From Candidatus Thorarchaeota archaeon (GTDB lineage: Archaea > Asgardarchaeota > Thorarchaeia > Thorarchaeales > Thorarchaeaceae), in assembly GCA_030612365.1 (NCBI GenBank), contig JAUWOA010000002.1, positions 425 to 64,424 of the forward strand: 64,000 bases of DNA. Direction: 5' to 3'. Below the pieces are notes generated by a model. That model was given only the letters and a program-made list of their open reading frames with translations. It was not told the origin of the DNA and searched no databases. Made by a program: the position numbers and the translations under genes. Position 1 is the first letter of the stretch. Every line of letters starts with the position of its first letter. This document shows, piece after piece, positions 1 through 14,979 of the stretch.

Positions 1-587
1 TTCCACAGATGTGCATTGAACAGGGTATCAAGATGGTGGTCGTTGACTCACTGACTGGATTCTTTCGGGCAGAGCTCGGGGGATTGGGTTCACTCGCTGT
101 GCGACAACAGAGGATCAACAGGCTCCTAAACCTTATGCGCCGAGTGGCAATGGCCACTGATGTGATGTTCGTTTACAGCAATCAAGCTATCTCAAGGCCC
201 GGCATATTCTCCGTGCTGAACGCCCCGGTGGGAGGGCATATAGTGGCGCACGCGTCCGACTATCGCTTCATGTCGACAGAGGGAAAGAGCGGGAAGCGCA
301 AGCTGTACCTCAAGGATCATGCTGGGTTACCCAACTTCAATGCTGAATTTAGCATAGGGTGGGGTGGGTTCTATAATAGCGAGGATGAGAGAAAGAAGAT
401 CGAACCCGAAGTAGTAGAGTATCTCAAGAGCAAGGACATATGCGTTGAAATGCAGGAGAAGGGCAAGAAGAAGGAAACAGAGAAGGTCAAGAAGACCAAG
501 GAACCAAAGAAATCGAAGAAGGCAGAAGCCAAGGCTGAAACCAAGGTGAAGCTAGAGGCGGAGGTTGCGCCAATAGCAGAGGGCTGA
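1..587 (+). CDS. RadA/Rad51-family recombinase-like protein, C-terminal part (5' end outside window), with K/E-rich tail
   Basis: ORF 9..587 stays open to the window edge. MVVVDSLTGFFRAE (Walker B strand), RQQ-N-LL, SNQ..RP and GGHIVAHASDYRF follow the RadA/Rad51 core pattern downstream of Walker A, which must lie upstream of the window. The last ~65 aa are lysine/glutamate-rich low complexity. Confidence 0.8.
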   Translation, partial: PQMCIEQGIKMVVVDSLTGFFRAELGGLGSLAVRQQRINRLLNLMRRVAMATDVMFVYSNQAISRPGIFSVLNAPVGGHIVAHASDYRFMSTEGKSGKRKLYLKDHAGLPNFNAEFSIGWGGFYNSEDERKKIEPEVVEYLKSKDICVEMQEKGKKKETEKVKKTKEPKKSKKAEAKAETKVKLEAEVAPIAEG

Positions 588-591
588 GGCG

Positions 592-1032
592 ATGCGCGGC
601 ATGTTTAGAATATACAAATGCCCCTCCTGTGGGGCGATTGCCTACATTAGGGTGGAGAACGAGCAGGAAATCAGCATATGTGGCCTATGCAGAGGTCCAA
701 TCCTTGACGAGCCTGGAATACTCTACTCTGCAACAATCAACCAAGCTGAAGATATTGTCGCAGAGATGGTCCTCCATGATATGTTGGAAAACAAAGCATC
801 AACACCAACAAGCGGCCTCGGTGTGAGGCGCAGAGTGCTCAATATTGTCGAGTGCCTTGTGGAGCTGAACAAGGGACGGCCTGTGAATATTGATAGTGTG
901 CTTAACGAGTGTGTGGGCGCCAAGATCAAGACCGAGAGGGGCCTTCACTTCCTAGATGTGCTTGAGGAACAAGGCTTGGTCATGGTTGATGGTGGCTGTG
1001 TCAGTCTGAGAGAGGGAGGCACAGACCCTTGA
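592..1032 (+). CDS. small Zn-ribbon protein with probable winged-helix C-terminal half
   Basis: CPSC-x16-CGLC four-cysteine ribbon at the N-terminus. The C-terminal RVLNIVECLVELNKGRPVNIDSVL...GLHFLDVLEEQGLVMV looks like a wHTH. Starts 5 nt after the upstream stop. Confidence 0.5.
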   Translation: MRGMFRIYKCPSCGAIAYIRVENEQEISICGLCRGPILDEPGILYSATINQAEDIVAEMVLHDMLENKASTPTSGLGVRRRVLNIVECLVELNKGRPVNIDSVLNECVGAKIKTERGLHFLDVLEEQGLVMVDGGCVSLREGGTDP

Positions 1033-1640
1033 CGCACTTGTATGTCCCCCCCTCATCAAACGATGTGACACCCAGCTCCACGATCAATCTTGTCAATCTA
1101 CTGATGAGAAACACTAACAGACGCGTGACAGTACTCCGAGTAGGAGGAACGGTGGACCCTGACCCAGAGGTGTATGTTGTCACCCGGGTGGACTGGCGGG
1201 ATAAGGATCTAAACAGGCCAATTCTACCCCAATTGCCAAAGGTGCTTTCGATGCTGGAAACCCTTCGAGGCTCTAGGGGTGTGCCCAAGGAGATTCACCT
1301 TGACAGTACCGACGGTGTTGTGTGCTACATACCAACTGGCATCAGAATGTCCCAGCTACCAAGAAGCGCAAAGGCATCAGTTCAATTCATCATGTCCGTG
1401 GTCAACCAGACAGTCAGCCACTTCGATTCGACCCGGTCTGAGGTCGAAGACTGGTTCTGGAGGACAGCACGCAAGAGGGGCTTCAATCCTGAGATTGTCG
1501 AGAGGATCGCCCGAAGGGAGAAGCACTACGATTCGCCATCTCACGAGCATAGGTTCAGCAAGGTCATAGAGGATTACTTCTCTCTCAGATTCAAAGTCTA
1601 TCGCGCAGAGTCATGTTTGAAGCTGGAGGGAGCATACTGA
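1029..1640 (+). CDS. hypothetical protein
   Basis: 203-aa ORF overlapping the upstream stop by 4 nt. Its TGA overlaps the ATG of the XPD gene (TGATG). No motif recognised. Confidence 0.5.
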   Translation: MTHLYVPPSSNDVTPSSTINLVNLLMRNTNRRVTVLRVGGTVDPDPEVYVVTRVDWRDKDLNRPILPQLPKVLSMLETLRGSRGVPKEIHLDSTDGVVCYIPTGIRMSQLPRSAKASVQFIMSVVNQTVSHFDSTRSEVEDWFWRTARKRGFNPEIVERIARREKHYDSPSHEHRFSKVIEDYFSLRFKVYRAESCLKLEGAY

Positions 1641-3616
1641 TGGCTGTGATGCGATGGTTTCCGTACACTCCAAGGCTCCAGCAGGATCGGGCCGTGACGC
1701 ATGCTGCCCATGTATTTCAGGATAAGACAGTGGGCCTGCTATCGGCGGACTGTGGAGTTGGAAAGACAATTGCCGTGCTCTCAGGGTATCTTGCGGCACG
1801 GGCGAAAGATGCATCGTCGCGATTGATTGTACTTACGAGAACGCACTCTCAGTCAAAAGTCTTTGAGGATGAGCTTGGAGTCCTCAGGGAGGAGTCGGCT
1901 GCAATGTCAGCTGGGCTCCAATTGACGGCCACGAGCATGGTTTCGCGGGGGCATGTCTGCCCATTGACCGACGAAATGAACTCGGTGTCATCAATCGGGT
2001 TCCTACGTGCATGCGCACAGATGATAGGCGCAGGAAAGTGCAGCATGTACTGGAGCTTCTACAAACGGGGATCGGAGGGCCGACCTATAATCCGAGACGC
2101 TGCCCGGCAAACTGTTGACGCCCTGCTGAACGAGGGCGTGGTCACTCGGGATGAAGCGGAGGACGTGGGGCGCTCGGAAGGAGTATGCCCGTACGAGGTC
2201 TTGCGCTGGTGTGCGCGCAAAAGTAGAGTAGTGATTGGTCCTTACGGCTACCTGTTCAGGGAGAGAGTCCGGAATGCGCTCCTCGCATCACTTGGAATGA
2301 GCTTACATGAGGTCGACCTGATTGTCGATGAAGCACACAACCTAGCATCACATGTACTGGGCTCGGAAACCGCATGTGTCAGTCTGTCTGATCTTGAATG
2401 GCTGAGAAAGCATAACTCAGAGATAGAGCGTGAAACGCAGGTCGAGTGGCTCCCTGAGGCGGTTGACTTTCTCTGGGAAACCGTGATGACTAACCTTGAT
2501 GATATGCACTCCGAGAAAAATCTTGAGAAGTGGGATGTACTGCCAAGGTTTGTAGATGAGTCACAGATACAGAACCTACTGCTTGGGACAAAGATTGGCC
2601 TGGATGAGTCTGATGGCACAGTGCCCACGGAAACCCCGCTGGACCGATTGGTGGAATTCCTCTACACGGGGCACCGAGCAGTTCAGAGTGAGGACTGGCA
2701 TGTCACGTTAGAGGTTAGGAAGCCTTGGAGGCAAGAGTCGAACAGCCGTGATGCTGATCTGAAGATTAGACCACTGAATGCAGCTGGATTGTCGGCCCCC
2801 GTACTCAGGGGCGCAAGATCTGCGTTGCTCATGTCTGGTACTCTGAGGCCACTGCAGCACTATGCGGACCTGCTGGGAGTGTCAGGTGCCCTGATGGAGA
2901 GCCTGATGAGTCCTTACCCTCATGGGAGTCGTCTTGTGCTCCTTGACAAGGATATCACAACCAAGTACACAGCGCGGGGCGAACAGCTGTGGAGGACCAT
3001 AGCAGGAAGAATCTCAACAGCCTTGACAGCGATGCCCTCCGAGAAGAGCGCCCTGATTGCCTTTCCAAGCTACAGGATAATGGAGGATGTTCTGAGCTAC
3101 GGCATAGATTGTGGATTCAGAGCAAGGCTAGAGGAAGCCCCAGGAGAGCGCATTGAGGTTGTCAAGGACGCACTTGAGGAAGGGCCTCATACGGTGTTTT
3201 GTGTCTACGGAGGCAAATTCTCTGAGGGCGTTGACCTTGTGGAGGGCGGGTCGAGTATGATTGACCTGATTATCGGAGTTGGGATTCCATTCAGCCCTCC
3301 AACCAGCTACCAGAAAGCCCTCCAAGGATGGTACGAGAGAAGATTCGGGAAGGGTGCAGGCTACTACTACTCGTCAATCGTACCGTCTTTTCGGATGGTT
3401 GCACAGCTTGTAGGCAGACTTCGAAGGAGCCCTGAGGATCGGGGAGTGGTCGTGCTTCTCGACAAGAGGTTCCAGCAATACATCAGAGTCTTTGGAGATG
3501 ACATGGTTTCGGACCACTGGCCCTACTCAGGAGTAGACGAGATGAGGGGTGCCATTGACCTATTTGTGAGACAGAGGAACAGAAAGGCGGAGGCGAAGGG
3601 AGAGGTTGGCGTTTAA
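1640..3616 (+). CDS. xpd: XPD/Rad3 (DinG-like) superfamily-2 DNA helicase with 4-Cys Fe-S domain
   Basis: N-terminal FPYTPR..Q, Walker A DCGVGKT, DEAH box (VDEAHNL). Four spaced Cys (VCPL, RACAQ, GKCSMY, GVCPYE) lie between motifs I and II. Later motifs SGTLRP, GKFSEGVDL, RLRRSPEDRGVVVLLDKRF. The ATG at 1640 is preferred over the longest ORF start (1613) because it overlaps the upstream stop. Confidence 0.85.
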   Translation: MAVMRWFPYTPRLQQDRAVTHAAHVFQDKTVGLLSADCGVGKTIAVLSGYLAARAKDASSRLIVLTRTHSQSKVFEDELGVLREESAAMSAGLQLTATSMVSRGHVCPLTDEMNSVSSIGFLRACAQMIGAGKCSMYWSFYKRGSEGRPIIRDAARQTVDALLNEGVVTRDEAEDVGRSEGVCPYEVLRWCARKSRVVIGPYGYLFRERVRNALLASLGMSLHEVDLIVDEAHNLASHVLGSETACVSLSDLEWLRKHNSEIERETQVEWLPEAVDFLWETVMTNLDDMHSEKNLEKWDVLPRFVDESQIQNLLLGTKIGLDESDGTVPTETPLDRLVEFLYTGHRAVQSEDWHVTLEVRKPWRQESNSRDADLKIRPLNAAGLSAPVLRGARSALLMSGTLRPLQHYADLLGVSGALMESLMSPYPHGSRLVLLDKDITTKYTARGEQLWRTIAGRISTALTAMPSEKSALIAFPSYRIMEDVLSYGIDCGFRARLEEAPGERIEVVKDALEEGPHTVFCVYGGKFSEGVDLVEGGSSMIDLIIGVGIPFSPPTSYQKALQGWYERRFGKGAGYYYSSIVPSFRMVAQLVGRLRRSPEDRGVVVLLDKRFQQYIRVFGDDMVSDHWPYSGVDEMRGAIDLFVRQRNRKAEAKGEVGV

Positions 3617-4205
3617 TTCTGCTAGTAGTCAGCTGAGGTATGTCGTGCCTGGAGCTGTTGGCGCAGCTTGGTCACTCAGGATGGCCCTTGACCAGTCATA
3701 TCAGGTTGTTCTTGAGTCGACAATAGGGCTGTTCCTCCTGTTGGTCGCCTTTGTGATATACATGAAGGGATGTGAAAAGAACCTTCTACTCTGGAACAAC
3801 GATACTGCGGTTCTCGCCACTGTAAAACCTCTCACAGTGGAAGTGTGCGCAGCCCGACTCATGACCAGTGTCCCGCTTGGGATTGACCTAAGCTATTCCG
3901 CGGGTAGAGTCCTTGAAACCATGACAATCAGGTTCAATGAGGAAAAGAATGCAGAACTGCGGTTCTTTGTCTGTCGACCTTTGGGACGTGGGGTTACACG
4001 CGTAGGCATGATGGTGGTTCGTCAAGCACCAAACATGCGTAGGTTGGCGTCTGTTGTTAAGAAACTGTCAGAGAAGGTGCTGGAGGATGTAATGGTCTTG
4101 GAGAGTGCTCTGCGCGCAGCCTATGCCCATATGCCCATTGCACGAGCGGAGCTAGATGATATCGCTCTCATAAACTCTGGAGGTGTGGATTTCGTTGTCA
4201 ACTGA
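3606..4205 (+). CDS. hypothetical single-pass membrane protein
   Basis: 199-aa ORF overlapping the XPD stop. One hydrophobic helix (IGLFLLLVAFVIYM). No catalytic motif. Confidence 0.5.
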   Translation: MAFNSASSQLRYVVPGAVGAAWSLRMALDQSYQVVLESTIGLFLLLVAFVIYMKGCEKNLLLWNNDTAVLATVKPLTVEVCAARLMTSVPLGIDLSYSAGRVLETMTIRFNEEKNAELRFFVCRPLGRGVTRVGMMVVRQAPNMRRLASVVKKLSEKVLEDVMVLESALRAAYAHMPIARAELDDIALINSGGVDFVVN

Positions 4206-4482
4206 GGTGCAAGCCCAGATCACAATCCCCACATCGCTACGCCCTCAGGCTGTCATGGACTCTTTGTCAATTGGCCATGGTTACAGTTGGATTGTTCTTG
4301 TTCCTACGCCAATGAGGATAGCTCATGGAAGCACATCGTGCGGGGACATGCCCGAGCTACTGATTGTAGGCAAGACCCTCCTGACGAGCGGGGGAAATGA
4401 AGTTTACATTGGCCGCCTGAGGAGGATGCTTGAGGTGTTGTCGGGCACTGTTGTGAAAGTGCGGAGGGATAGCGATGTCTAA
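4183..4482 (+). CDS. hypothetical small protein
   Basis: Fills the gap between the flanking genes and overlaps both. Alternative ATG at 4255. No motif recognised. Confidence 0.35.
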   Translation: MWISLSTEVQAQITIPTSLRPQAVMDSLSIGHGYSWIVLVPTPMRIAHGSTSCGDMPELLIVGKTLLTSGGNEVYIGRLRRMLEVLSGTVVKVRRDSDV

Positions 4483-6826
4483 GGGCGGCCATATCATGGG
4501 TTCGAAGCCCGAGAGAGACCCTCTGGAGGAGATAAAACAAGCCCAGCTTTGGGTTACGCAGAGCACCGAGCTTAGATGGAGCGATAGAAGTGTTCGTCCT
4601 CCATGGACGAAAGTCTTTCTGGCAACGGCAATGATTATCGTAGGAACATTCTGGATGCCGTGGCTTACAATCACGATGACGGTACTAGCATCCGTCATTC
4701 TTCTGATTCTTCTCAACCTATTCTCGGTGAACAGAACCCTGAAGGAATGGACACGTGTTCCTGAACCCGATCTATCGCTTGAGGAGGATGAGAAGAAGAA
4801 GTACGTCTGCAGCAGGGGAATAGGAGGCGAGCGGCATATCGTGGGCATGAGCCTCAAGTCGGTTTCCTCCGACCTAGGGGGTGATCTTGGAAAACTCATT
4901 CGGGGGGTAGATACTGGGTATGGTCTGTGCCTTACGGTGGCTATGAGTCCTCAGAATCCCAAGACTGTCCTTGAGGGCGATATCCTGCCGGAAGCACTTC
5001 AGACTTACTTGGAGCACATGTCATCAAACGGGCTCAAAGGTTACATGCTTCGCAGAGGCGGCCTGTGGAAAGCAAGCACGTCGGTATATGGACATTCAAG
5101 AGACCGACTTGCACTTCCCAGATTCGAGGCTTCCATCAAGGGAGCAATTCCGGAACCCGGCTGGAAGAGGGACAAGGCTAAAGATATCTTGGAACGAATC
5201 ATGACTCTTCAACTCACTAGGAACAGCGCATTCCATGCCAGTGGGAGCGAGTTGACGGAGTGGCTCGTTCAGCTTAAGAGCGAACTTGGACCGGAGGTTG
5301 GCAGCAACGTACCCGGCGAGTTCATAGCACCTATACGTGACAGGCCGGGCGATTACCGCCTAGGCGTGACAATCAATCCTGAAACTCTCCAGACTGGACC
5401 AATGGCAGGCATGTGTCACAATGATCTAACCGGAGGAATGTTGCTCTGTGGAGGTGATTGGCCGGAACGACGCAGAGTAATGATGCTCTTGACCAAGCAG
5501 CTTCTGGATGCCGGCAAGCGAGTAATGATTGTGAGTTCCAGGTCCGAGGCGATGGAGTTCGCAGCTCTTACAGACTCGGGGATTGGGTTGACTCTGGGAA
5601 AGGACCTCGTTCTCAATCCAGTCGATGCTGAGGACATTCCGAGAAGCCTGTACGTGCCCCAACTGAAGATGGCACTTGAAACCATTGCAGACACAGACCT
5701 GAGTTCCGCCGCAGATTTTGAATTGGCATTAGGGAGGGCGGTTGCCTTGTCGAACGCAACGCTCGCAGATGTCACACTCCCAAGCGCGGACACAGACATG
5801 ATGGATGGCACAGAGGGTCCTACAACGGACAGGACCTCTCGGAAAACAGAAGCAGGGATGGAAGCAGTCAAGGTGCTTTACCAAGGGTCAGGTTCAAGAG
5901 CTTTCTACGGGCACCAGACTGTTAAGCTATCTAAGCTAGCAGAACAGCAGCTGAGCGTCACGGTCATATCATTGGGGTCAATCATTCTCGATACATTCGG
6001 GTGGGACCTCTTCAGCATGAAGCTAGCCGGCCTGCGCAGTGATTCCGATTTAGTTGTGATCATTGATGGTCCCTTCAATCTCAAGCTCTATGGACCATAC
6101 GATTCCAGGTACAAGAGACGCGTCCCTTGGACTGATCAACTCACACGCGACTTGACAAGAAGAGGACCTCTGATTGTGAGCATTGAGAGACCATCGGGTC
6201 TTGCCACGGAGGTTGTGGCTAGGTTATCATCGTGCATATCCCTACGGCTTCGCAACAATTGGGATATCGGTGTTGCTACAGACATTCTCGGGTTGACAGT
6301 CATTGGCCATGGTTTGCACAGTAAGGCCCGCCAATCCTCCAGAGAGTCATCATATCTTAGAGTGATGGAGAAGGGAATTGCGCTAATGGTACATGACGGT
6401 GCAGAAACCTGCCAGCCAATACAACTTGATGACGCCCCTGCCTTGCTACCACCATCGACCGATGAGTTGTCGAACAGGGCAGCAGGGGTTTCCAATGGTA
6501 TAACCAGCGACGATGGAAATACAGGCCATACGACTCTGATAGGTCATGTAGCTGGAAGCGAAACTGACTTGGCTGTGAGTGTGCTCAGATTGCTTCAGCG
6601 ATACGAACCCCTCACAGAGGAGGCACTTCACAGGTTTATCATCTCAAGCAGTGGACGGGAGGATATGGATGTCGAAGCAGTGCTTGTCAGGCTAGAACAT
6701 GCCAGTATGATCCTGCGGGGCCACGAGTCACATGGCGGAGTGTCCTACGCGAATTACAGACTAACCATGAAAGGCACGATGGCACTACACCAGATGGCGG
6801 GAGAAGAAGCCACAGCTACAGGATGA
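4475..6826 (+). CDS. membrane-anchored HerA/FtsK/VirD4-like P-loop-fold protein with degenerate Walker motifs and C-terminal wHTH
   Basis: Two N-terminal TM helices (FLATAMIIVGTFWMPW, TMTVLASVILLILLNLF). The core has HerA/DUF87-like order, but Walker A reads GGDWPERR (nt 5450..5473) and the Walker B position reads LVVIIDGPFN. ISLRLRN..D follows. The C-terminus (LRLLQRYEPLTEEAL...YRLTMKG) looks like a winged helix. Confidence 0.6.
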   Translation: MSKGGHIMGSKPERDPLEEIKQAQLWVTQSTELRWSDRSVRPPWTKVFLATAMIIVGTFWMPWLTITMTVLASVILLILLNLFSVNRTLKEWTRVPEPDLSLEEDEKKKYVCSRGIGGERHIVGMSLKSVSSDLGGDLGKLIRGVDTGYGLCLTVAMSPQNPKTVLEGDILPEALQTYLEHMSSNGLKGYMLRRGGLWKASTSVYGHSRDRLALPRFEASIKGAIPEPGWKRDKAKDILERIMTLQLTRNSAFHASGSELTEWLVQLKSELGPEVGSNVPGEFIAPIRDRPGDYRLGVTINPETLQTGPMAGMCHNDLTGGMLLCGGDWPERRRVMMLLTKQLLDAGKRVMIVSSRSEAMEFAALTDSGIGLTLGKDLVLNPVDAEDIPRSLYVPQLKMALETIADTDLSSAADFELALGRAVALSNATLADVTLPSADTDMMDGTEGPTTDRTSRKTEAGMEAVKVLYQGSGSRAFYGHQTVKLSKLAEQQLSVTVISLGSIILDTFGWDLFSMKLAGLRSDSDLVVIIDGPFNLKLYGPYDSRYKRRVPWTDQLTRDLTRRGPLIVSIERPSGLATEVVARLSSCISLRLRNNWDIGVATDILGLTVIGHGLHSKARQSSRESSYLRVMEKGIALMVHDGAETCQPIQLDDAPALLPPSTDELSNRAAGVSNGITSDDGNTGHTTLIGHVAGSETDLAVSVLRLLQRYEPLTEEALHRFIISSSGREDMDVEAVLVRLEHASMILRGHESHGGVSYANYRLTMKGTMALHQMAGEEATATG

Positions 6827-9081
6827 TGCGATATGACGAGTCTGAAGACCAAAATGCAACAGCAGGAGGAACAAGCTTGACATCCGCCATGGATACCACC
6901 ACATACGTGAAGGGCATTCTCGCAGGCGTGGGGCTCACTCCTAGGGGTATCCAGAGCAAGGCAATAGAGGCAGGACTGCTTGAGGGCAAGAGTATCATGG
7001 TATGTTCCCCTACAGGTTCGGGCAAGACGCTTGTTGGAGAGATGGCGCTCCTTAGAGGGGTCAGCGACATTTGCAAAGGCATCTACCTCGTTCCCCTGAG
7101 GGCGCTGGCCACGCAGGTTGTCAGTGTTCTCAAGGAGCGCTATGCTGACCAGGGAATCAGGATTGAGGTCTCCACAGGGGACTTTCAGACCGATGGCTCC
7201 GACCTAGCAGAGGCTCAGATACTTGTGACGACCTACGAGAGAGCAGACTCCCTCGTGAGGCACAAGGTTGACTGGCTCAACAAGGTTGGAGTGTTGGTCA
7301 TTGACGAGGTACAGAATATCGGGCACACGTCAAGAGGCGCGCGTTTAGAGAGCGTCATTATGAGGATGCGGAAACTGACTGAGGACCTCCAGATAGTTGC
7401 CCTATCTGCTACTGTCGGAGAGCCCTACATGCTAGCTGATTGGCTAGGGTGCCATCTAGTGGAATCTGATGTCCGTCCTGTGCCGTTGACGTGCAAGCTG
7501 GTTCCAACAACAGATCGTGAGAAGACTGTGCAGCAACTTGTGATGGCCACTGTGCAGGCTGACGGTCAGGTGATTGTATTCCACAGGACAAGACGCGAAA
7601 CTGAGGCTGAGGCTAACCGTCTGAAGGATAGTGTGGGGCGACAGCTGCGCACCAATGAACGGACGACCCTTGACAGGGAGATGGACTCCTTAGAGAACTG
7701 GAATGTCACAATACCCTCGGAAATGCGGCCATTTCTGCACGATGGTGTTGCATACCACCATGCTGGTCTTGGAGCCCGCACGAGAAGGCTTGTCGAAACC
7801 ATGTTCGATCGTGGACTGTTGAGGGTGGTCTGTGCAACTACAACACTGGCAGCTGGGATGGATCTACCTGCACGAACAGTGGTACTCACATCAGCAAGGT
7901 CCCCCCAACATCACAAACGGTTCCTTCCCGCCAATCAGGTCCATCAAATGCTGGGCAGGGCGGGCAGACCGGGAAAGGATGTTAGGGGTTTTGGAGTGAT
8001 TCTCACTGGTAGCCAAGGCGAGGTCAAGATGCTGACAAAGGAGTACTTTACGAATGAAGTCAGTCTTGATACTGGAAAGATAGTTCTGACGCCAAAGTAC
8101 GAGCCAGTGACTAGCGAGCTTGGGACATCGAACAGCCTTACAGAACAACTGCTAGTAGCACTCGATTTTCTAGGAGAGGCATCCCTTGAAGAGGTCGAGC
8201 AGGAGTACCTTGGAGAGTCATATTTGTTCTACTGTGGCAGATGGCTAACGAACACCCCCATGAGGATTGTGCAACTCGGTGAGGTGACTGCGCAGGCCGC
8301 AATCGAGCGCCACGCCAATCCGAATATGGTCCGTTCTGCAAGAGAAAATATACTGGGTACGGTCAAGATTAGAGAGCGTGGTGATACAGTCATCGGGGGG
8401 ATTGTTTCTGTGCTGAGGAGTGGACAACAGACATGCAGGTTCTCAGCAAGGATGACATCTGATGGTACGCTGGAGGGTCCGATGTGCTCATGCGGAAGCC
8501 CCATGAACAAGCATGGCTTTCTGTGCAACCATCTTGTTGCGCTTGGCATGGCAGCATCATCGGAGATGATTCAACTGGCCAATTATGTAATCCCTCTCGC
8601 GCTGAGTGAAACAAGTCCGAGTGGCCTTCTGATACGCCTTGGACTCTTGGAGGGTGGTGAGGGCGGCAAGTTGCGACCCACAACCCTCGGCAGGACTGTG
8701 AACAGACTCTACCTCAAGATTACTACCTTCAAAGAGATGATGGCTCTTATTCCGACAATTGGGAGTAACACAGTCCTAATGTCGGTGCTGAGGCATCTGG
8801 TATCACTTGAAACAGGGCAGAAACAGGGTGAAACCTTTGAGGCCCTCATCGGCTCTGTCGCATCAACCAATCTCTCGATGAGAGAAATGGCTCGTATGAC
8901 TAACCTTGCCGTAGGCGACATAAAAGCCCTACTTGACAAGTCACGCTTGCTTCTATACTCGATTGTAGCAGTGGCAGACAGGGGCAACATGGAGCGGGTG
9001 TCTGAGATGGTGCAAGACCTTCTCTCGATTATAGATTCAAGATTACATCACATGGAGAGCGAAAACAATGACAGTAACTGA
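6823..9081 (+). CDS. Ski2/Hel308-like superfamily-2 helicase with embedded SWIM-type zinc finger
   Basis: Motif I SPTGSGKT, motif II VIDEVQ (Q replaces the usual H, nt 7303..7314), SAT, HHAGL, TTTLAAGMDLPA, QMLGRAGRPG. C-x-C-x10-C-x-H (CSCGSPMNKHGFLCNH, nt 8485..8532) lies in the C-terminal third. ATGA overlap with the upstream gene. Confidence 0.85.
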   Translation: MMRYDESEDQNATAGGTSLTSAMDTTTYVKGILAGVGLTPRGIQSKAIEAGLLEGKSIMVCSPTGSGKTLVGEMALLRGVSDICKGIYLVPLRALATQVVSVLKERYADQGIRIEVSTGDFQTDGSDLAEAQILVTTYERADSLVRHKVDWLNKVGVLVIDEVQNIGHTSRGARLESVIMRMRKLTEDLQIVALSATVGEPYMLADWLGCHLVESDVRPVPLTCKLVPTTDREKTVQQLVMATVQADGQVIVFHRTRRETEAEANRLKDSVGRQLRTNERTTLDREMDSLENWNVTIPSEMRPFLHDGVAYHHAGLGARTRRLVETMFDRGLLRVVCATTTLAAGMDLPARTVVLTSARSPQHHKRFLPANQVHQMLGRAGRPGKDVRGFGVILTGSQGEVKMLTKEYFTNEVSLDTGKIVLTPKYEPVTSELGTSNSLTEQLLVALDFLGEASLEEVEQEYLGESYLFYCGRWLTNTPMRIVQLGEVTAQAAIERHANPNMVRSARENILGTVKIRERGDTVIGGIVSVLRSGQQTCRFSARMTSDGTLEGPMCSCGSPMNKHGFLCNHLVALGMAASSEMIQLANYVIPLALSETSPSGLLIRLGLLEGGEGGKLRPTTLGRTVNRLYLKITTFKEMMALIPTIGSNTVLMSVLRHLVSLETGQKQGETFEALIGSVASTNLSMREMARMTNLAVGDIKALLDKSRLLLYSIVAVADRGNMERVSEMVQDLLSIIDSRLHHMESENNDSN

Positions 9082-10888
9082 GGAAGAAATGCCAATACAT
9101 AAGGCTGAGGAGTCCAAGAGTCCCAAAGGAGAATCGAAGACTTACGATATAGTGGAGGTCCTAAAGGCTACTGACCACCTAACCCATGTTTCCCCCAATG
9201 GGCTGGTGTTGGGAGTAAGGGTCTCGGGGATTTCAGGGGCAAGAGGGGTCCACGTTGAGATTGTTCATATACTGGACCTTAGGAATGCGGTCTTTGGCAA
9301 GGGTGGTTTTGCCTTGCAGGCATCGGTTCTTGAGAGTGTTAACAGGGGACTCCCTAGCCTCTTGAAGGACGTTGGGCTTCGAGAACGATTGGAGGCGACA
9401 TCACCGTTGACCCCTTGGGGACGAGTGCCCATGCGTACTCTGCGTTCTGCGTCTGGCAAGCGAAAGTCCTTGGTTTATGAAACCAGACTTGTCTACGTTG
9501 TGACTCAGGATGTCCGATCCTCGGCAGACCTGAGCTGGTTGACTGCAAATGAACGGGTGGTCAGTGTGCACGACTTTTCCCTTGCTAGAAAGAGCGACGC
9601 AAGAACCATTCTGCCCGACCTCGAGAAGAGCCTAATCGTGGATAAGTGGGATGGTTTCTCAAGGGCTATCCGGAATGGATGGTACGGAGTGCTAGCGGCT
9701 GGGGCCAGTGTACTCGGGGGTGTGACATCCCTCATGGTCCTGTTATCGAACTCAGGCAACCTCACTGTACCATTGGCCTTTATGGGGGTGTGTGGAGCGG
9801 GAGCAGCATGGCTACTCAAGCAGTCCCACAATGGGCTAAACGAGTTCCGCAAAATAATCGAGAGTGAACAAGCAGGAGTTGCATCTCTTGGAGATAGGAA
9901 ACGTGTAGCGGCTTCGATAAAGAATAATGAGAAGAAAATTAGGCTCATTGGCGACCTGAGCTTTGTGATATCCCCCTTAATGGCGTCAGCATCGAATAAC
10001 CTTGAAGATAGCGACGTTAACGGTGCCGTAGTGCTTGCAGAAAGGGTCTTGGATGAACTCGTAAGGCTCGCTCCATCTGATGAAGCCAAGAAGGGCATTG
10101 TGACCGGGGACGCTGGGATTGAGAGATTCATTGGCGTCTTCCGAAATGTAGGCGCAGACCTGACAGAGACGGAGGAGGTTTCTCTAGCCCTTGCTTACAC
10201 CGCAGTAACAGGACATGTCACTACGCCGCTAGGGGTAGAAGAAGCCCTGACGCATATGGCAGTCTTGAATACAAGTCTGTTCAATGCAGGTGTATTGAGT
10301 CCGACAGTTAGGGGCTCCATTGATGATATGTTCATCTCGAGGGCATTTCATGTAATCATTGACGAGTTCGGTGCAGATCTTGCCAAGCCAGAAGAGGAGA
10401 TTGTGCAGACCGTTGAGGGGGATGACTCTGGCATGGAGGAGCTAATTGGGGACATTGCAAAGTCCGGTCCGGTTTCAGAGGAACACGAGGAGGAAGCTAA
10501 CCCCGAGGTGGAAGAAACCCCTGAAGAAGAACTGCCAGTAGGAGCTCCCGCTGAGGTGGAATCCACAAAGGATGAAACTGAAACCGATTGTGTTGAGGCA
10601 GTCGAGGTCGAACTCGCGCCTCCGAGCAAAGCGGAACCCGACGGGACCCAGAATGATACTGATAGCAAGGAGAAGCGAGAGGAAGAGGCAATTCCTGAGG
10701 TCTCAGACGATGTGACTGTTGCAGAGGAATCAGAAGCGCTTGTGGTGGCGCAGTCTTCACTTGATGAGGTAGAGAACGAAAAGGACCCCTCTACGGGGCC
10801 TGAGGCCATCAGCAGGAGGAAGAAGAAGCAAGCCAAGCAACGTGCTATGGGTCGAACGAAGCGGGAGCGTGGTAAGGTCGCAGCTTGA
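9068..10888 (+). CDS. hypothetical membrane protein with acidic low-complexity C-terminal region and basic tail
   Basis: Two TM helices mid-protein (GVLAAGASVLGGVTSLMVLL, LAFMGVCGAGAAWLL). About 130 aa of E/D-rich sequence, then RRKKKQAKQRAMGRTKRERGK. Overlaps the upstream stop. Confidence 0.55.
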   Translation: MTVTEEEMPIHKAEESKSPKGESKTYDIVEVLKATDHLTHVSPNGLVLGVRVSGISGARGVHVEIVHILDLRNAVFGKGGFALQASVLESVNRGLPSLLKDVGLRERLEATSPLTPWGRVPMRTLRSASGKRKSLVYETRLVYVVTQDVRSSADLSWLTANERVVSVHDFSLARKSDARTILPDLEKSLIVDKWDGFSRAIRNGWYGVLAAGASVLGGVTSLMVLLSNSGNLTVPLAFMGVCGAGAAWLLKQSHNGLNEFRKIIESEQAGVASLGDRKRVAASIKNNEKKIRLIGDLSFVISPLMASASNNLEDSDVNGAVVLAERVLDELVRLAPSDEAKKGIVTGDAGIERFIGVFRNVGADLTETEEVSLALAYTAVTGHVTTPLGVEEALTHMAVLNTSLFNAGVLSPTVRGSIDDMFISRAFHVIIDEFGADLAKPEEEIVQTVEGDDSGMEELIGDIAKSGPVSEEHEEEANPEVEETPEEELPVGAPAEVESTKDETETDCVEAVEVELAPPSKAEPDGTQNDTDSKEKREEEAIPEVSDDVTVAEESEALVVAQSSLDEVENEKDPSTGPEAISRRKKKQAKQRAMGRTKRERGKVAA

Positions 10889-11564
10889 GAACGATTCCAT
10901 GTTCGGGCTTAACGGTCTGATACATCTCTCTGGAGTGGCTGGTTCTGGCAAGACCCTCTTTGCAGTCGCCTTGGCATCCAAGGCTACGCGGAGTGGGAAG
11001 GTGCTATGGATCAACACCGATGCGAAGACAGCATTTGTCAATCATCTGAAGGTCAACATTGATTCAGTGGGTGGCGACAGGATAGCAATCTCTATTCTCC
11101 CAATCATGGGTCATAAGCGCGTCCGAGAAGCCATTCTGAACCTTCCAGGCAGTCTTGACGAGGACACGGTGCTTATTGTAGTCGATCCCGTAACGCGAGC
11201 CTTGGACATGTCCCACAGAGAGGATGTGATGTGGGGTAGAGAGATGTTCGAGGAAGTGATGCCCACCCTTGCAGGTCTGATTGCTAGAGGATTGAATGTG
11301 ATTATTGTGTCTGAGAGCAGGAGCTTTGACCGCGAGCCTGTTGCCGTGTTTCATAGGTCGATAAAGGGGTGGGCTGATCACGACTTGGTGCTTTCTAGGC
11401 GGTATGGCACATCAGTCACCGACGTAACACGCTATCAGACTGAAGGTAAAGTTCCTTTCGTGCAATTCACACTAGCAGAGGAGGGGGTTGTGAAGGTGAC
11501 AGAATACAATGAAGGAGACAACTCGGAGGTGTCGGATTGTTCGGGAAGTCGATGCTCCGCATAG
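10842..11564 (+). CDS. RecA-superfamily ATPase (RadB/KaiC-like short RadA paralog)
   Basis: Intact Walker A GVAGSGKT (nt 10932..10955) and Walker B-like LIVVDPVTRAL. No N-terminal HhH domain. The ATG at 10899 (MFGLNGL) is an equally plausible start 10 nt after the upstream stop. Confidence 0.75.
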   Translation: MLWVERSGSVVRSQLENDSMFGLNGLIHLSGVAGSGKTLFAVALASKATRSGKVLWINTDAKTAFVNHLKVNIDSVGGDRIAISILPIMGHKRVREAILNLPGSLDEDTVLIVVDPVTRALDMSHREDVMWGREMFEEVMPTLAGLIARGLNVIIVSESRSFDREPVAVFHRSIKGWADHDLVLSRRYGTSVTDVTRYQTEGKVPFVQFTLAEEGVVKVTEYNEGDNSEVSDCSGSRCSA

Positions 11565-12508
11565 TGGGACTGGTAGTTGCTGGTGCCGTGGCACTTGCCT
11601 TGGGAGCCAGCCTGCTGAGTTCAGTTGTGGGAGTTGTAACTGCTCTAAGATCTGGGGATATGGTCCCGTTCATTGTTGTGGCAGTGACCACAGTCATCTT
11701 CCTCAGACTGTCTGCACGACCCTATGAGAAACGAACACCTGTTCACGTTTTGCTAGAAGTGCTCGGATGGACCTCTGCAATCTACTTGTTCGTGGTTGTT
11801 CTAATGTGGGTGCTTCCATTCGGAGTGGTGCCGGCAATCCTTGCAGCAGGGGTCACAGCTGTGTTGTGCGGGTTCGTAAGAGACCCAACCGGGCTCAATG
11901 AGAAAATGAGTCGAATTGCAGATGTTTCATCATCATTAGGTCTGAGTCCTACTGGGTTGAGCATCACCTCGCAATTAGACAGCACTCAATCGATGTGGGC
12001 GAGAATAGAGAATCTCCGGTATAAGGTCATAATCATTCCCCACAATCATTTTGACACAGTGATTGGCCTCCTCAAGGACCGCCCCAAACTTCCAGTATCC
12101 CTCACACGACTGGAGGATACAGATGCTCTGATAGTGAGAGATGAGGAGTGGACTGACAGAGTCCTTGAAGTGTTGAGAGAGAGTGGCGTTCCTGACGCAC
12201 ATATTGCCTCCCCTCTTCTTGAAAAAGCGATACTTGCACACCCCCTGTTGGAGCAGGATCACGGGGTCAAGGTCAATGACTATCAATTCACCTGTGACGC
12301 TGACACCGTGGAAAAATTACTAGCAATTCAACCGCTGCGAATGACCGTGTATCCCGATCCCAAAGGACTGGTTGTGATGGTTTTCAGTGACAGCGTACCC
12401 GGACTCAACCTTGAACCCCTTCCGATGGGAAGAGCGGCATCAGCAGTTATGGCCCGTGATATATCACACCTACCCAGAGGTGAACCTACTATTGGCAATT
12501 CCACTTGA
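11537..12508 (+). CDS. hypothetical polytopic membrane protein with soluble C-terminal domain
   Basis: Four or more hydrophobic helices in the first ~110 aa, then a ~200-aa soluble region. Overlaps the upstream gene. Confidence 0.55.
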   Translation: MFGKSMLRIVGLVVAGAVALALGASLLSSVVGVVTALRSGDMVPFIVVAVTTVIFLRLSARPYEKRTPVHVLLEVLGWTSAIYLFVVVLMWVLPFGVVPAILAAGVTAVLCGFVRDPTGLNEKMSRIADVSSSLGLSPTGLSITSQLDSTQSMWARIENLRYKVIIIPHNHFDTVIGLLKDRPKLPVSLTRLEDTDALIVRDEEWTDRVLEVLRESGVPDAHIASPLLEKAILAHPLLEQDHGVKVNDYQFTCDADTVEKLLAIQPLRMTVYPDPKGLVVMVFSDSVPGLNLEPLPMGRAASAVMARDISHLPRGEPTIGNST

Positions 12509-13205
12509 TTCAATTGACATAGCAACAGAGCCAGTGACGAGGCTGGTGCCACGACAACTTGACAGGGTGTTAGGACAACTACTGATTCCAGGTCAGGTCA
12601 GCCTTATTCACGGCCCTGACAGGTCTCCACTGACGACTATTGCGCATGCTGTTGCGGTGGGTGCTGTCAAGTCTGGCGGACGGTCCGCATACCTGGATTC
12701 TGGTAGCAACTACAGCTCCGCCTTGACGAGGGTGCTGTGCAACAGAAGTGGTTCTCCGGAGGATTTGCTAAAGGAGATTTCAGTGGGACCGGTGATGAGT
12801 CTTGCAGATCTTGAGGGGATGGTCCTTCAGGTGTCCTCCATGGAAGGAATCACAATGGTTGTGGTGGATAGTCTGACGGGAGTGCTGAACCTAACGGGTG
12901 CCCCGAGGAGCAAGGGCAGACAGAGGAAACTCTTCGCCACCCTTGAGGTTCTGAGGGGTGTCGTGAATGACAATAATATCCATCTATTCATCACAGACCA
13001 CTCGACAAGGAACTGGAACAGCGGAACACCCAGCCCGATTGGAGGCAACGTCATCGCTCATGGGGTTGACTCTCTCATCAGAGTGGACCGCCTTGCTGTC
13101 AAGGAGGGTATGTTCAGGCTTGAGGTGGAGAGAAGTCCGGTCAATCCAGCTGACAAGGGAGTGATTATACAAATTGGACTGAATGGAATCAGGTCGATCA
13201 AATAG
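12387..13205 (+). CDS. RadA/RadB-like RecA-fold paralog with degenerate Walker A
   Basis: RQLDRVLGQLLIPGQVSLIHGPDRSPLT occupies the position of LD.LLGGG....i.G..GsGKT, so the P-loop is lost (nt 12612..12635). Walker B strand MVVVDSLTG and GGNVIAHGVDSLIRV are retained. The true start is uncertain; a GTG at 12534 would avoid the 122-nt overlap. Confidence 0.7.
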   Translation: MTAYPDSTLNPFRWEERHQQLWPVIYHTYPEVNLLLAIPLDSIDIATEPVTRLVPRQLDRVLGQLLIPGQVSLIHGPDRSPLTTIAHAVAVGAVKSGGRSAYLDSGSNYSSALTRVLCNRSGSPEDLLKEISVGPVMSLADLEGMVLQVSSMEGITMVVVDSLTGVLNLTGAPRSKGRQRKLFATLEVLRGVVNDNNIHLFITDHSTRNWNSGTPSPIGGNVIAHGVDSLIRVDRLAVKEGMFRLEVERSPVNPADKGVIIQIGLNGIRSIK

Positions 13206-13211
13206 GAGGAA

Positions 13212-14204
13212 TTGGGGGTGGGTGCAAAGAACTGGAACTTCGTGCCTTGGGAGTGGGCTAGCATTGACGAGCTTTCTCCAAGGACAATCGCTATAGACGC
13301 CCCGAACTATCTTATCCGCAGACTGTCTACCATCCGGAGGGGTAGCAGGTTCAATCGAGTTCCCTTAAGTCATATTCATGTTGTTCTCGGTATAATCCGC
13401 GCAGCGCTTCGCACTCATGTCCTTCCAGTACTGGTGTTCGATGGCCCTCCTGAGACACTGAAACGTGCTCCCAATCCCGAGCTCATCATTGCGGCACACG
13501 ATCTATACCGCACCTTCTACTCTGAGAGAGACCCCTACAACCACAAGCTGGTCAATGACCTGCAGGAAAGTCCTGCACTGAGGATGTACTTTGCAGCGTT
13601 TCACATCAAGGATCTCTGCAAAAGCCTGGGTATCCCATGTATCAACTCGCCCTCTGAGGCTGAGATGGCGGCTGCAGTCATGTGTCGTGATGGGTTGGTT
13701 GGCACGGTTGTGTCGAATGATGCTGATGCGCTATTGTTCGGAAGCCCGCATGTCACAAAACAGCTCCATCTCACAAAGAGGGAAATTTTCAGGGTCACGC
13801 AGAGTGAGCTTGAGGCCAAGATGGACCTAGACCTAGAGCATCTGAGGGACCTTGCTATTGTGTGCGGGTGCGACTTCCACAAGCAGGGTGTGAAGGGAGT
13901 GGGGCCTCGCAAGGGGGTGGTCCTCCTTCAGAGGCACGGAGGTCTTGTAGGACTTCTCAAGGCGCGTGGCTATACTGCATTTCAGAGAGAGGATTACATT
14001 CTCGCCCGAGAGGTCTTTGATGAGCCTAATCACATGTCCAGCAATGGGTTTGATATCACTCTCAGACCTCCAATGGTCCCAATGGCAGTCAGGCTGCTCA
14101 GCGCTGTTATGGGAACGGAGAAGGCCAAAGAAACCGTGGCGAAGATAATACGACTGTGGAAAAATTTCGGTGAACAGCAGACAACACTGGAGCAATTTGC
14201 ATGA
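13212..14204 (+). CDS. fen1: flap endonuclease FEN-1 (XPG/Rad2 family)
   Basis: MGV N-terminus, IAIDAPNYL, VLVFDGPPETLK, SPSEAEMAAAVM, SNDADALLFGSP, H3TH region CGCDF..GVKGVGPRKG. The extreme C-terminus QTTLEQFA is PIP-box-like. AGGAGGA at 13204..13210; start at TTG 13212 or GTG 13218. Confidence 0.85.
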   Translation: MGVGAKNWNFVPWEWASIDELSPRTIAIDAPNYLIRRLSTIRRGSRFNRVPLSHIHVVLGIIRAALRTHVLPVLVFDGPPETLKRAPNPELIIAAHDLYRTFYSERDPYNHKLVNDLQESPALRMYFAAFHIKDLCKSLGIPCINSPSEAEMAAAVMCRDGLVGTVVSNDADALLFGSPHVTKQLHLTKREIFRVTQSELEAKMDLDLEHLRDLAIVCGCDFHKQGVKGVGPRKGVVLLQRHGGLVGLLKARGYTAFQREDYILAREVFDEPNHMSSNGFDITLRPPMVPMAVRLLSAVMGTEKAKETVAKIIRLWKNFGEQQTTLEQFA

Positions 14205-14247
14205 CGAGAAGCGAGGGGCATATCCCGAGAATAGGAGGACGATAGGA

Positions 14248-14979
14248 ATGAACAGTCTACTGGATGAGAATACACAAGGCCCAATCCTTACAAGTCGTGA
14301 AGTCAGGGAGCGGTACATCGAACTGGAGAAAGCCATGAAGGAGCTTAAGGAGGAGTACAGGTCATTCATCCATACAATGGCTCATGACATCAGGGGGTGC
14401 TTCAATGCGGTCCTTGGCTATGCACAGCTTCTCAAGGAGGTCCACAATCCAGAGTACGCAGATACGATTGTTGAGAGTGTCCATAGGATGACGCGGTTGC
14501 TGGACCGGTCAGTACGACTAGTGGACATGGGTGTACCCGTGAGCTGGCTCTCAGAGGTTGATCTGAACAAGGTGATTCCAACAGTTGCTAGTTCGGTGTT
14601 GCCCGCGGAGGTTGAATTCTTGCATGATAGACTTCCGATTGTGCTTGGAGATCCAGACAAGTTAGCACAAGCCTTTCAGAACCTGTTCGCAAATGCTGTC
14701 GAACATGGAATGGCACACAGGGTTGAAGTCCGCAAGAGGAGCGCAGAGGGTGGGATTGCGATTCTATTCCGCAATGATGGACAGCCAATTCCCGGTGAAC
14801 TCCGCTCATTAATATTCAGCGAACGGGTAAGCTCCAAACCTGGGGGCGGAATGGGGCTTGGTATTGTGAAGAAGATTATTGAATCTCATGAATGGAGTAT
14901 TAAACTGGATCCTGTTGAGATGCCGACCTTTAGATTATATGTGCCTGCGTCTAGCATTGTTAATGGGGCTGCATGGTGA
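14248..14979 (+). CDS. soluble sensor histidine kinase (HisKA + HATPase_c)
   Basis: H-box HTMAHDIRG, N-box NLFANAVEH, G-boxes RNDGQPIP and GGGMGLGIVKKIIESH. No TM segment. The ATG at 14248 is preceded by GGAGG (14234..14238). The longest ORF starts at 14170 inside fen1. Confidence 0.8.
   Translation: MNSLLDENTQGPILTSREVRERYIELEKAMKELKEEYRSFIHTMAHDIRGCFNAVLGYAQLLKEVHNPEYADTIVESVHRMTRLLDRSVRLVDMGVPVSWLSEVDLNKVIPTVASSVLPAEVEFLHDRLPIVLGDPDKLAQAFQNLFANAVEHGMAHRVEVRKRSAEGGIAILFRNDGQPIPGELRSLIFSERVSSKPGGGMGLGIVKKIIESHEWSIKLDPVEMPTFRLYVPASSIVNGAAW

Follow-up and report, generated by a model that had tools for sequence, protein, structure and literature searches.

A predicted SWIM-type module within Asgard Hel308-like helicases, one form of which is encoded alongside RadA-family genes

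Introduction

Hel308/HELQ helicases and RAD51 paralogs are central and poorly understood regulators of homologous recombination, and a partnership between them is known in animals. Here we analyze a Hel308-like helicase gene from Candidatus Thorarchaeota archaeon that contains a predicted SWIM-type zinc module and lies in a conserved cluster with genes for RadA-fold proteins. The gene is located at positions 6823..9081 (+ strand) of a 64,000-nucleotide stretch (GenBank assembly GCA_030612365.1, contig JAUWOA010000002.1, positions 425 to 64,424 of the forward strand), which we call the window. An earlier reading of the letters alone (the sequence-only reading) had noticed the motif and speculated that, in an Asgard-type host, it could represent a prokaryotic counterpart of the partnership between the eukaryotic SWIM protein Shu2/SWS1 and Rad51 paralogs.

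The closest sequence and fold matches of the helicase are Hel308/Hjm proteins (PDB 2p6r, 2va8, 2zj2). Like these proteins, it is predicted to combine a pair of RecA domains, whose motifs are the same, with a winged-helix region and a helical ratchet. It differs in that a SWIM module of ~70-90 residues separates the winged-helix region from the ratchet, in that the helix-hairpin-helix (HhH) domain 5 is missing, and in that its scores fall far under the NCBIfam equivalog cut-offs. To our knowledge, the solved Hel308/Hjm structures contain no zinc site. In 2002, Makarova, Aravind and Koonin reportedly described prokaryotic SWIM domains that are fused to SNF2-family ATPases or located next to them. 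These bacterial and archaeal proteins are said to combine, as here, a SWIM zinc module with a superfamily 2 (SF2) nucleic-acid motor; however, their motor is of the Snf2/Swi2 type and their SWIM domain is usually N-terminal or separate, whereas the module we describe is inserted within the accessory domains of a helicase of the Ski2/Hel308 type.

Two eukaryotic systems offer further comparisons. Where the SWIM protein Shu2/SWS1 came from is obscure. The spacer of yeast Shu2 is 59 residues long, and some Rad51 paralogs of Shu complexes lack ATPase motifs. HELQ is not known to contain a SWIM module, and it retains domain 5. SWIM domains elsewhere bind DNA or protein and have the signature CxCxnCxH, typically with n = 6-16; that of yeast Shu2 contacts the Rad51 paralog Shu1 directly (PMC5727457). 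Shu complexes contain Rad51 paralogs, and in Shu2/SWS1 proteins the motif extends to CxC...CxHxxA, in which the alanine is invariant (PMC6316741). HELQ physically binds both BCDX2 and RAD51 (PMC13623763). Our locus resembles the Shu complex (Shu2/SWS1 with Csm2-Psy3-Shu1; SWSAP1) in that a CxCxnCxH module is encoded with RecA-fold paralogs, one of which has dead ATPase motifs, but in our case a helicase contains the SWIM module internally, and the module is also found in helicases that do not adjoin paralogs. It resembles HELQ-BCDX2 in that a Hel308-family helicase is coupled to the RecA-fold paralogs of a recombinase (PMC13623763), in this case as a conserved operon or neighborhood. Unlike the HELQ-BCDX2 coupling, which is both functional and physical, that in the window is known from genomes alone, and its paralogs are RadB-like, core-only proteins and not orthologs of RAD51B/C/D/XRCC2.

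Our literature searches returned no description of a SWIM domain in Hel308 or in Asgard helicases, nor of the gene cluster. Asgard Hel308 does come up in a 2026 review of Hel308/HELQ, but the words "zinc" and "SWIM" do not. As a few members of the family (for example, P0163; P and L numbers denote homologous proteins and loci) already carry a SWIM label from automatic Pfam annotation, the insertion can be seen in databases but has apparently not been discussed.

Results and Discussion

The window encodes a Hel308-family helicase with a conserved Cys/His motif

The helicase open reading frame (ORF) at 6823..9081 (+) is intact and specifies a product of 752 amino acids (aa). Its N-terminal 444 residues form a Ski2/Hel308-type SF2 motor, with Pfam matches to DEAD (1e-32) and Helicase_C, and NCBIfam Hel308-type models match residues 29-444 (2e-98 to 4e-75). 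The two RecA-like motor domains occupy residues ~25-425 (6895..8097, +) and carry the SF2 motifs, as judged from Pfam/NCBIfam alignments and a phmmer search of the PDB, in which A. fulgidus Hel308 (2p6r) matched residues 25-420 at 1.3e-65. GSGKT, DE(V/I)(Q/H), and QMLGRAGRP are invariant in an alignment of 26 orthologs. When we modeled the full-length protein with AlphaFold2 (AF2; predicted local distance difference test score, pLDDT, 79), the top Foldseek matches in the PDB were Hjm/Hel308 structures (TMq 0.60-0.64, TMt <=0.72, ~760 columns). Judged from this model, the helicase keeps the Ski2-like motor, the winged-helix region, and the ratchet of Hel308/Hjm. The sequence-only reading had called the gene Ski2/Hel308-like, and ORF, family matches, and fold match bear it out.

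Nucleotides 8485..8532 (+; tgc tca tgc gga agc ccc atg aac aag cat ggc ttt ctg tgc aac cat) encode CSCGSPMNKHGFLCNH, that is, C555-S-C557-x10-C568-N-H570. The C-x-C-x10-C-x-H motif had been reported correctly, letter for letter, and its position at 74% of the protein length is indeed in the C-terminal third. Based on the DNA and its translation, on homologs, and on shuffled sequences, C555-x-C557-x10-C568-x-H570 are putative zinc ligands. The helicase contains only 10 cysteines and 16 histidines, and the pattern C.C.{6,25}C.H arose in just 4 of 20,000 composition-preserving shuffles.

To follow the motif among relatives, we collected more than 120 full-length orthologs (50-76% identity). Those that bear names are nearly all labelled Thorarchaeota, and the host is accordingly an Asgard archaeon. 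All four putative ligands are invariant in the alignment of 26 orthologs, and CxCx(9-10)CxH is kept in 124 of 125 full-length homologs, a set made up of 120 Thorarchaeota orthologs and five other cluster representatives. Four of these five are distant (23-31% identity), including one named Hermodarchaeia and one from a cluster named Jordarchaeum. The sole exception among the 125 is P0095, in which the histidine is replaced by glutamine. A phmmer search with the C-terminal 311 aa against 1.84 billion representatives had returned 15 clusters, suggesting a rare, Thorarchaeota-centred family. This suggestion was overturned by a full-length search from the Jordarchaeum homolog, which recovered 116 further Asgard helicases, all with CxCx(8-22)CxH at the equivalent place; the name-bearing members carry Jord, Odin, Baldr, Loki/Promethearchaeota, Hermod, and Thor names. 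The conservation of the Cys/His residues on which the earlier proposal depended is found in 124/125 and 116/116 homologs. An extra cysteine in strand 3 of the module, Cys538 (8434..8436, +), is nearly invariant, being >=90% conserved in Thorarchaeota and invariant in mixed alignments of Thorarchaeota and distant proteins. As far as these alignments tell, the SWIM insertion is an old and general feature of Asgard Hel308-like helicases, present in all those recovered in our analysis. Canonical Hel308 models of NCBIfam stop aligning past residue ~444 of the window helicase, which, together with the solved structures that we know of, suggests that the insertion is missing from non-Asgard Hel308.

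A SWIM-type module separates the winged-helix region from the ratchet

AF2 models and Pfam matches on homologs predict a SWIM-type module at residues ~511-581 (8353..8565, +), with a four-stranded antiparallel sheet followed by a helix. In the full-length model the strands comprise residues 513-519, 523-530, 534-544, and 550-555, and the helix residues 569-581. Modeled in isolation, the module has the same topology (pLDDT 90; strands 5-13, 16-23, 27-37, and 43-48), with CxC at positions 48/50 ending strand 4 and CxH at 61/63 opening helix 62-74. The window helicase has the CxCxnCxH signature with a short spacer (n = 10). Moreover, the Pfam SWIM model exceeds its gathering cut-off of 19.6 bits on a segment of P0130 (22.8 bits, E 6.7e-5) and on the Baldrarchaeia protein P0163 (27.7 bits, E 2e-6, profile positions 1-35 of 38); scores on P0157 (17.6 bits), P0166 (16.7 bits), and P0135 (15.1 bits) are below threshold. 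SWIM is the only Pfam family that recurs on the module region (5 of 13 segments), and both P0130 and P0163 align column by column with the window helicase through all the ligands. Since Pfam SWIM recurs, and passes its cut-off in homologs at the same aligned position, we agree with the sequence-only reading that the module is, by homology, a genuine SWIM-type module, and C555, C557, C568, and H570 are predicted to bind zinc. Among the top 50 matches of the isolated module in BFVD, the two with the highest TMq (0.49 and 0.48) are SWIM-annotated giant-virus proteins. At E ~0.5 these matches are non-significant and suggestive at most.

The module is preceded by a helical region at residues ~436-507 (8128..8343, +), a probable winged-helix/linker region for which Pfam gave no family match and in which AF2 places helices at residues 436-450, 455-465, 467-472, 490-496, and 500-507. 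It is followed by the predicted helical ratchet (Hel308 domain 4; residues ~621-749; 8683..9069, +), where the AF2 model is helical over residues 621-749 and where Pfam Helicase_dom4_arc (PF21280) matches the aligned region of homologs, in their last ~100 residues. The protein ends there, with HhH domain 5 missing. By alignment, the HhH-bearing relatives P0157, P0163, P0178, P0207, and P0224 run ~50-60 residues longer, and Pfam HHH_5 matches P0157 and P0163, in which the domain order is motor, SWIM, domain 4, HhH. From this order and the alignment, we conclude that the module is an insertion that follows the winged-helix region and precedes the ratchet, and that it does not substitute for them. 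The contrast that the sequence-only reading had drawn with the winged-helix, ratchet, and HhH domains of canonical Hel308 is accordingly right for HhH domain 5, but not for the ratchet, which is retained.

We call the form in the window, with a SWIM insertion and without HhH domain 5, sub-type A. We also considered whether SWIM replaces the lost HhH domain and rejected this idea, as sub-types B and C carry both SWIM and HhH. Thorarchaeota, Lokiarchaeota, and Hermodarchaeia also encode a longer SWIM-Hel308 of 807-898 aa that has kept HhH (P0224 and P0168, both Thorarchaeota-labelled; P0178 and P0207; loci L026 and L029). In this longer form the spacer has 19-21 residues (CSCGFxNGISDNFxxxEFSFEFCDH), and the gene is flanked divergently by a conserved four-gene set encoding membrane and unknown proteins. 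Because Thorarchaeota also encode this HhH-bearing form, their genomes probably carry two SWIM-Hel308 paralogs.

Sub-type A helicases are linked to RadA-family genes

The helicase gene lies in a tightly packed cluster of 13 genes (9..14204, +) whose neighbors abut or overlap at the predicted starts and stops. The order is RadA, Zn-ribbon, u203, XPD-like, u199, u99, u783 (HerA-like), SWIM helicase, u606, B240, m323, B272, and FEN1-like. A genome scan with a Thorarchaeota-only alignment yielded 17 species-representative Thorarchaeota loci, one of which (L007) is 93% identical to the window. Following each as far as its contig extends, we found the same 13-gene order in every locus long enough, with proteins 45-55% identical.

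Three of the genes encode RadA-fold proteins. The first, a RadA recombinase, is represented by its 3' part (9..587, +; NCBIfam PRK04301, 1.3e-26, model positions 196-312 of 316), and full-length RadA proteins of 347-349 aa with HHH_5 and Rad51 domains are encoded at the same place in L002 and L003. The second, B240 (10842..11564, +), is a RadB-like RecA-fold paralog whose Walker A (GVAGSGKT) and Walker B motifs are intact according to alignments and a profile search of the PDB. GVAGSGKT and hhhhD are conserved in Thorarchaeota, in L005 (Jordarchaeum by name), and in L006 (with an Odin-like helicase). A single-sequence search of the PDB with B240 was empty; its family profile matched RadB 2cvf at 4.1e-25. 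The third, B272 (12387..13205, +), is a RadB-like paralog with a degenerate Walker A motif, matching Pfam Rad51 (5.5e-9), NCBIfam RadB (2.7e-16), and PDB RadB 2cvf (1.6e-7). Its GPDRSPLT aligns to GPYASGKT of RadB, and the motif is degenerate in all Thorarchaeota orthologs (GxxK/R-A/S-P-L-T). The start of B272 is uncertain: candidates are GTG 12387, which overlaps the upstream gene by 122 nucleotides, GTG 12480, and TTG 12492, and the latter two would give a protein of ~230-240 aa, similar in length to its orthologs. Neither B240 (22.4 bits) nor B272 (60.1 bits) reaches the NCBIfam RadB cut-off of 172.4 bits, although RadB is still the best match of B272. The sequence-only reading had described three co-operonic RadA-fold proteins, one without a P-loop. 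The three proteins are indeed RadA, B240, and B272, with a degenerate Walker A in B272, but the P-loop missing from RadA is an artefact, because that gene is cut by the window edge.

Outside Thorarchaeota, the short sub-type A helicase is encoded near RadA-family and HerA-like genes in five loci, with differing orders and strands. In L003 the arrangement is RadA...XPD...u783-HEL-u606 (HEL, the helicase); in L005, HEL, Zn-ribbon, RadB-like, ..., FEN1, with RadA and u783 upstream; in L006, RadB-like, a 384-aa protein, HEL, ..., u783; and in L024 (Lokiarchaeota by name), RadA, RadB-like, ..., HEL, ..., u783, ..., FEN1. In L027, which has a Hermod-like helicase, HEL adjoins RadB-like, macroglobulin-like giant, and RadA genes. 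A RadB-like gene lies <=10 kb from the helicase in L005, L006, L024, and L027. The recurrent association with RadA paralogs that the earlier reading looked for is thus present, in rearranged form outside Thorarchaeota, and the linkage is real for sub-type A. The HhH-bearing sub-types differ. No RadA-family gene lies beside the type B helicases of L025 and L028, nor beside the type C helicases of L026 and L029, which have a different conserved neighbor set with a u783-like giant; in L029 a weak RadB-like match is located ~7.4 kb downstream of the helicase. As SWIM is present in sub-types without an adjoining RadA-family gene, the module does not track the RadA-paralog neighborhood. The insertion is older and broader than the helicase/RadA linkage, and paralogs alone therefore cannot explain it.

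Possible roles of the helicase and its SWIM module

We favor, as the rather likely explanation, a specialised Hel308-family helicase with an intrinsic SWIM module that serves a RadA-centred recombination/repair operon, with SWIM not being paralog-specific. The gene product would be a Hel308-family 3'-to-5' DNA helicase or translocase. The SWIM insertion occupies the same position in the five-domain, HhH-containing forms and in the shorter sub-type that has lost HhH, and the shorter sub-type would be a paralog dedicated to the conserved RadA operon. The helicase could be the branch- or single-stranded-DNA-processing motor of a recombination/repair machine and could act with RadA and its paralogs, as HELQ does with BCDX2. 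The SWIM module may provide an intrinsic, zinc-stabilised surface for docking a substrate or partner, and it does not look like a module that evolved specifically to hold RadB-like paralogs. By analogy, HELQ-BCDX2 is a closer eukaryotic parallel than Shu for the linkage between helicase and RadA paralogs.

The SWIM module could instead bind the RadB-like paralogs, especially B272, perhaps paired with B240, and tether a RadA-filament mediator in the manner of a Shu complex. We regard this as unlikely. It draws on the contact between yeast Shu2 and Shu1 and on the Rad51 paralogs within Shu complexes, on the ATPase-dead and active RadB-like paralogs that are co-operonic with the SWIM helicase in all Thorarchaeota loci, and on the RadB-like genes within 10 kb of sub-type A helicases in four other loci. 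However, SWIM is equally present at L025, L026, L028, and L029, where the helicase has no adjoining RadA-family gene, and B272 with its dead P-loop was detected only in Thorarchaeota. The alanine of CxHxxA is present in the window helicase (Ala573), but the residue at +3 of CxH is alanine in only 57 of 124 members (46%), the others having T, S, I, V, M, K, E, L, or N. The module is also internal to a 752-aa helicase, unlike the small, stand-alone Shu2/SWS1. No Shu2 chain was found when we searched PDB sequences with a profile of the module, which gave only spurious matches to p300 TAZ2 (E >= 0.65), or when we searched the PDB with Foldseek, a search of low sensitivity for so small a domain and one that assumes that the Shu structure (PMC5727457) is in the PDB. 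With SWIM in unlinked helicases, a variable alanine, an internal position, and no Shu2 similarity, the counterpart of the Shu2/SWS1-Rad51-paralog partnership that the sequence-only reading had envisaged is not borne out. Quite unlikely, in our view, is that the ligands merely form a structural zinc staple that stabilises the linker between winged-helix and ratchet, in which case the module would have no ligand of its own and the neighbors would be irrelevant. The ligands are invariant while the spacer (8-22 residues) varies in length and sequence and the +3 position varies across sub-types, and searches of PDB and BFVD found no significant structural neighbor, both of which speak for a staple; yet conservation reaches beyond a zinc knuckle and takes in the entire module of ~70-90 residues, with the sheet, Cys538, and the helix that comes next, and SWIM domains elsewhere bind DNA or protein (PMC5727457).

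Could the cluster be cargo of a defence system or mobile element, its helicases, HerA-like protein, and nuclease forming an anti-virus or integrated-element module? The helicase gives strong matches to Hachiman HamB models of PADLOC, and the XPD-like protein to the model for a type IV CRISPR-associated DinG. HerA-like proteins are also partners in bacterial defence systems. The best PDB match of u783, 8j4u, has no annotation beyond that of a nucleoside triphosphate hydrolase, but may be a defence-system HerA. Nevertheless, the PADLOC matches are generic helicase matches, the other eight proteins have none, and no known system architecture is present, on which grounds we reject the defence reading as extremely unlikely. 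Also speaking against it are the shared order in the 17 Thorarchaeota species-representative loci as far as the contigs reach, with 45-55% identity; a bona fide RadA and a FEN1-like gene within the cluster; and a GC content that is uniform across the cluster region. We noted no integrase or repeats, in a search for them that was not exhaustive. A broader scenario, which we consider very unlikely, would make the Thorarchaeota cluster and its rearranged Asgard versions a hitherto undescribed, membrane-associated recombination machine in which SWIM docks the RadB-like pair onto the helicase, a prokaryotic forerunner of both the HELQ/RAD51-paralog and the SWS1/RAD51-paralog partnerships. Its parts could be RadA, the active and dead RadB-like proteins, the SWIM-Hel308-like and XPD-like helicases, the inactivated HerA-like protein, the FEN1-like nuclease, four membrane proteins, and the macroglobulin-like giant that recurs nearby, and its substrate might be DNA that cells exchange or take up at the membrane.

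Several observations weigh against the specialised-helicase explanation that we favor. Pfam SWIM (PF04434), which recognizes P0130 and P0163, matched neither the full window helicase nor its C-terminal 343 aa nor an 85-aa segment, even at E <= 10. Foldseek with the isolated module gave no significant match in the PDB (best E 0.19) or BFVD. The helicase scores below the NCBIfam Hel308 equivalog cut-offs (330.4 bits against 887 for PRK02362; 261.4 against 1200 for NF040935), and, with these cut-offs so far away, its substrate and its polarity are both extrapolations. For sub-types B and C the sample is two loci each, and the genes are presumed to form an operon from their spacing and synteny. 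Finally, the ligand of the module is judged from the distribution of the module, which makes DNA at the winged-helix/ratchet junction most likely and a universally present protein partner second.

With SWIM in every recovered Asgard Hel308-like helicase, and one paralog in a RadA/RadB-like operon, these archaea offer a compact and experimentally tractable prokaryotic system for studying the function of a SWIM module on a recombination helicase and the cooperation between helicases and recombinase paralogs. The analysis also draws attention to a conserved and largely uncharacterised Asgard cluster that encodes a HerA-like pseudo-ATPase together with membrane proteins and to which a gene for a macroglobulin-like giant is linked. 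These proposals are directly testable and should be relevant to specialists in archaeal recombination and in eukaryogenesis.

Other genes in and around the cluster

The neighbor most consistently linked to SWIM helicases is the HerA-FtsK-like protein u783 (4475..6826, +), which accompanies them in every lineage examined except L025 and L028. It was characterized by a family profile against the PDB, an alignment, and its hydrophobic segments. The profile matched the HerA-type NTPase 8j4u_M (1.1e-3), HerA 8ziq (0.4), and PadR-like 3l7w (0.03). The Walker A motif of u783 is replaced by GGxxxER in all lineages, and the protein has two N-terminal membrane helices (in Thorarchaeota) and a C-terminal PadR-like winged helix. 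As in the archaeal herA-mre11-rad50-nurA operon, a HerA-family protein is encoded with nuclease and recombination functions. In contrast to that operon, the HerA-like protein of the Thorarchaeota cluster has a degenerate P-loop, membrane helices, and a winged helix-turn-helix tail, and Mre11, Rad50, and NurA are missing, the partners being XPD-like, SWIM-Hel308-like, RadA/RadB-like, and FEN1-like proteins.

Six members of the cluster have no family assignment. The small Zn-ribbon protein of 146 aa (592..1032, +) has a weak Zn_Ribbon_TF match and is conserved in the Thorarchaeota cluster. It is followed by the conserved protein u203 (1029..1640, +), which has no family match, is syntenic in Thorarchaeota, and was detected in L003. 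Two further proteins are conserved by Thorarchaeota synteny: u199 (3606..4205, +), with one membrane helix predicted from hydrophobicity, and the small u99 (4183..4482, +). Downstream of the helicase, u606 (9068..10888, +) is a conserved, syntenic protein whose tail is acidic and for which two membrane helices are predicted, and m323 (11537..12508, +) is a polytopic membrane protein with ~four hydrophobic segments that is syntenic in Thorarchaeota. The FEN1/XPG-family flap endonuclease-like gene (13212..14204, +) matches NCBIfam fen_arch at 2e-36, which is below the cut-off, as well as Pfam XPG_I and XPG_N.

The XPD/Rad3-like SF2 helicase (1613..3616, +) matches Pfam DEAD_2, Helicase_C_2, and HBB and NCBIfam rad3 (8.6e-44). 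Over its full length it scores 252 bits on the PADLOC model labelled type IV-A CRISPR-associated DinG; its NCBIfam matches are only a generic rad3 sub-family match and a weak Csf4 match. We saw no CRISPR or Cas genes within the cluster.

Directly after the FEN1-like gene, and overlapping its predicted end, is a histidine kinase gene (HisKA and HATPase_c; 14170..14979, +). As no locus other than the window and the 93%-identical L007 was found to have it there, it probably does not belong to the conserved cluster. Further downstream is an ORF of 628 aa on the opposite strand (15516..17402, -) that has no Pfam match. L001 and L002 have a minus-strand gene of similar size (556-562 aa) at the same position after the cluster, matched by size and place only.

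The window also encodes a giant protein of 2608 aa that resembles alpha-2-macroglobulin (18235..26061, +), with MG2, MG4, Big_1, and a prenyltransferase-like toroid. Similar giants are encoded beside or inside the RadA/helicase cluster in L003 (14278-22068), L006 (1588-5568), L027 (12345-17282), and L026 (14989-17955), in differing arrangements.

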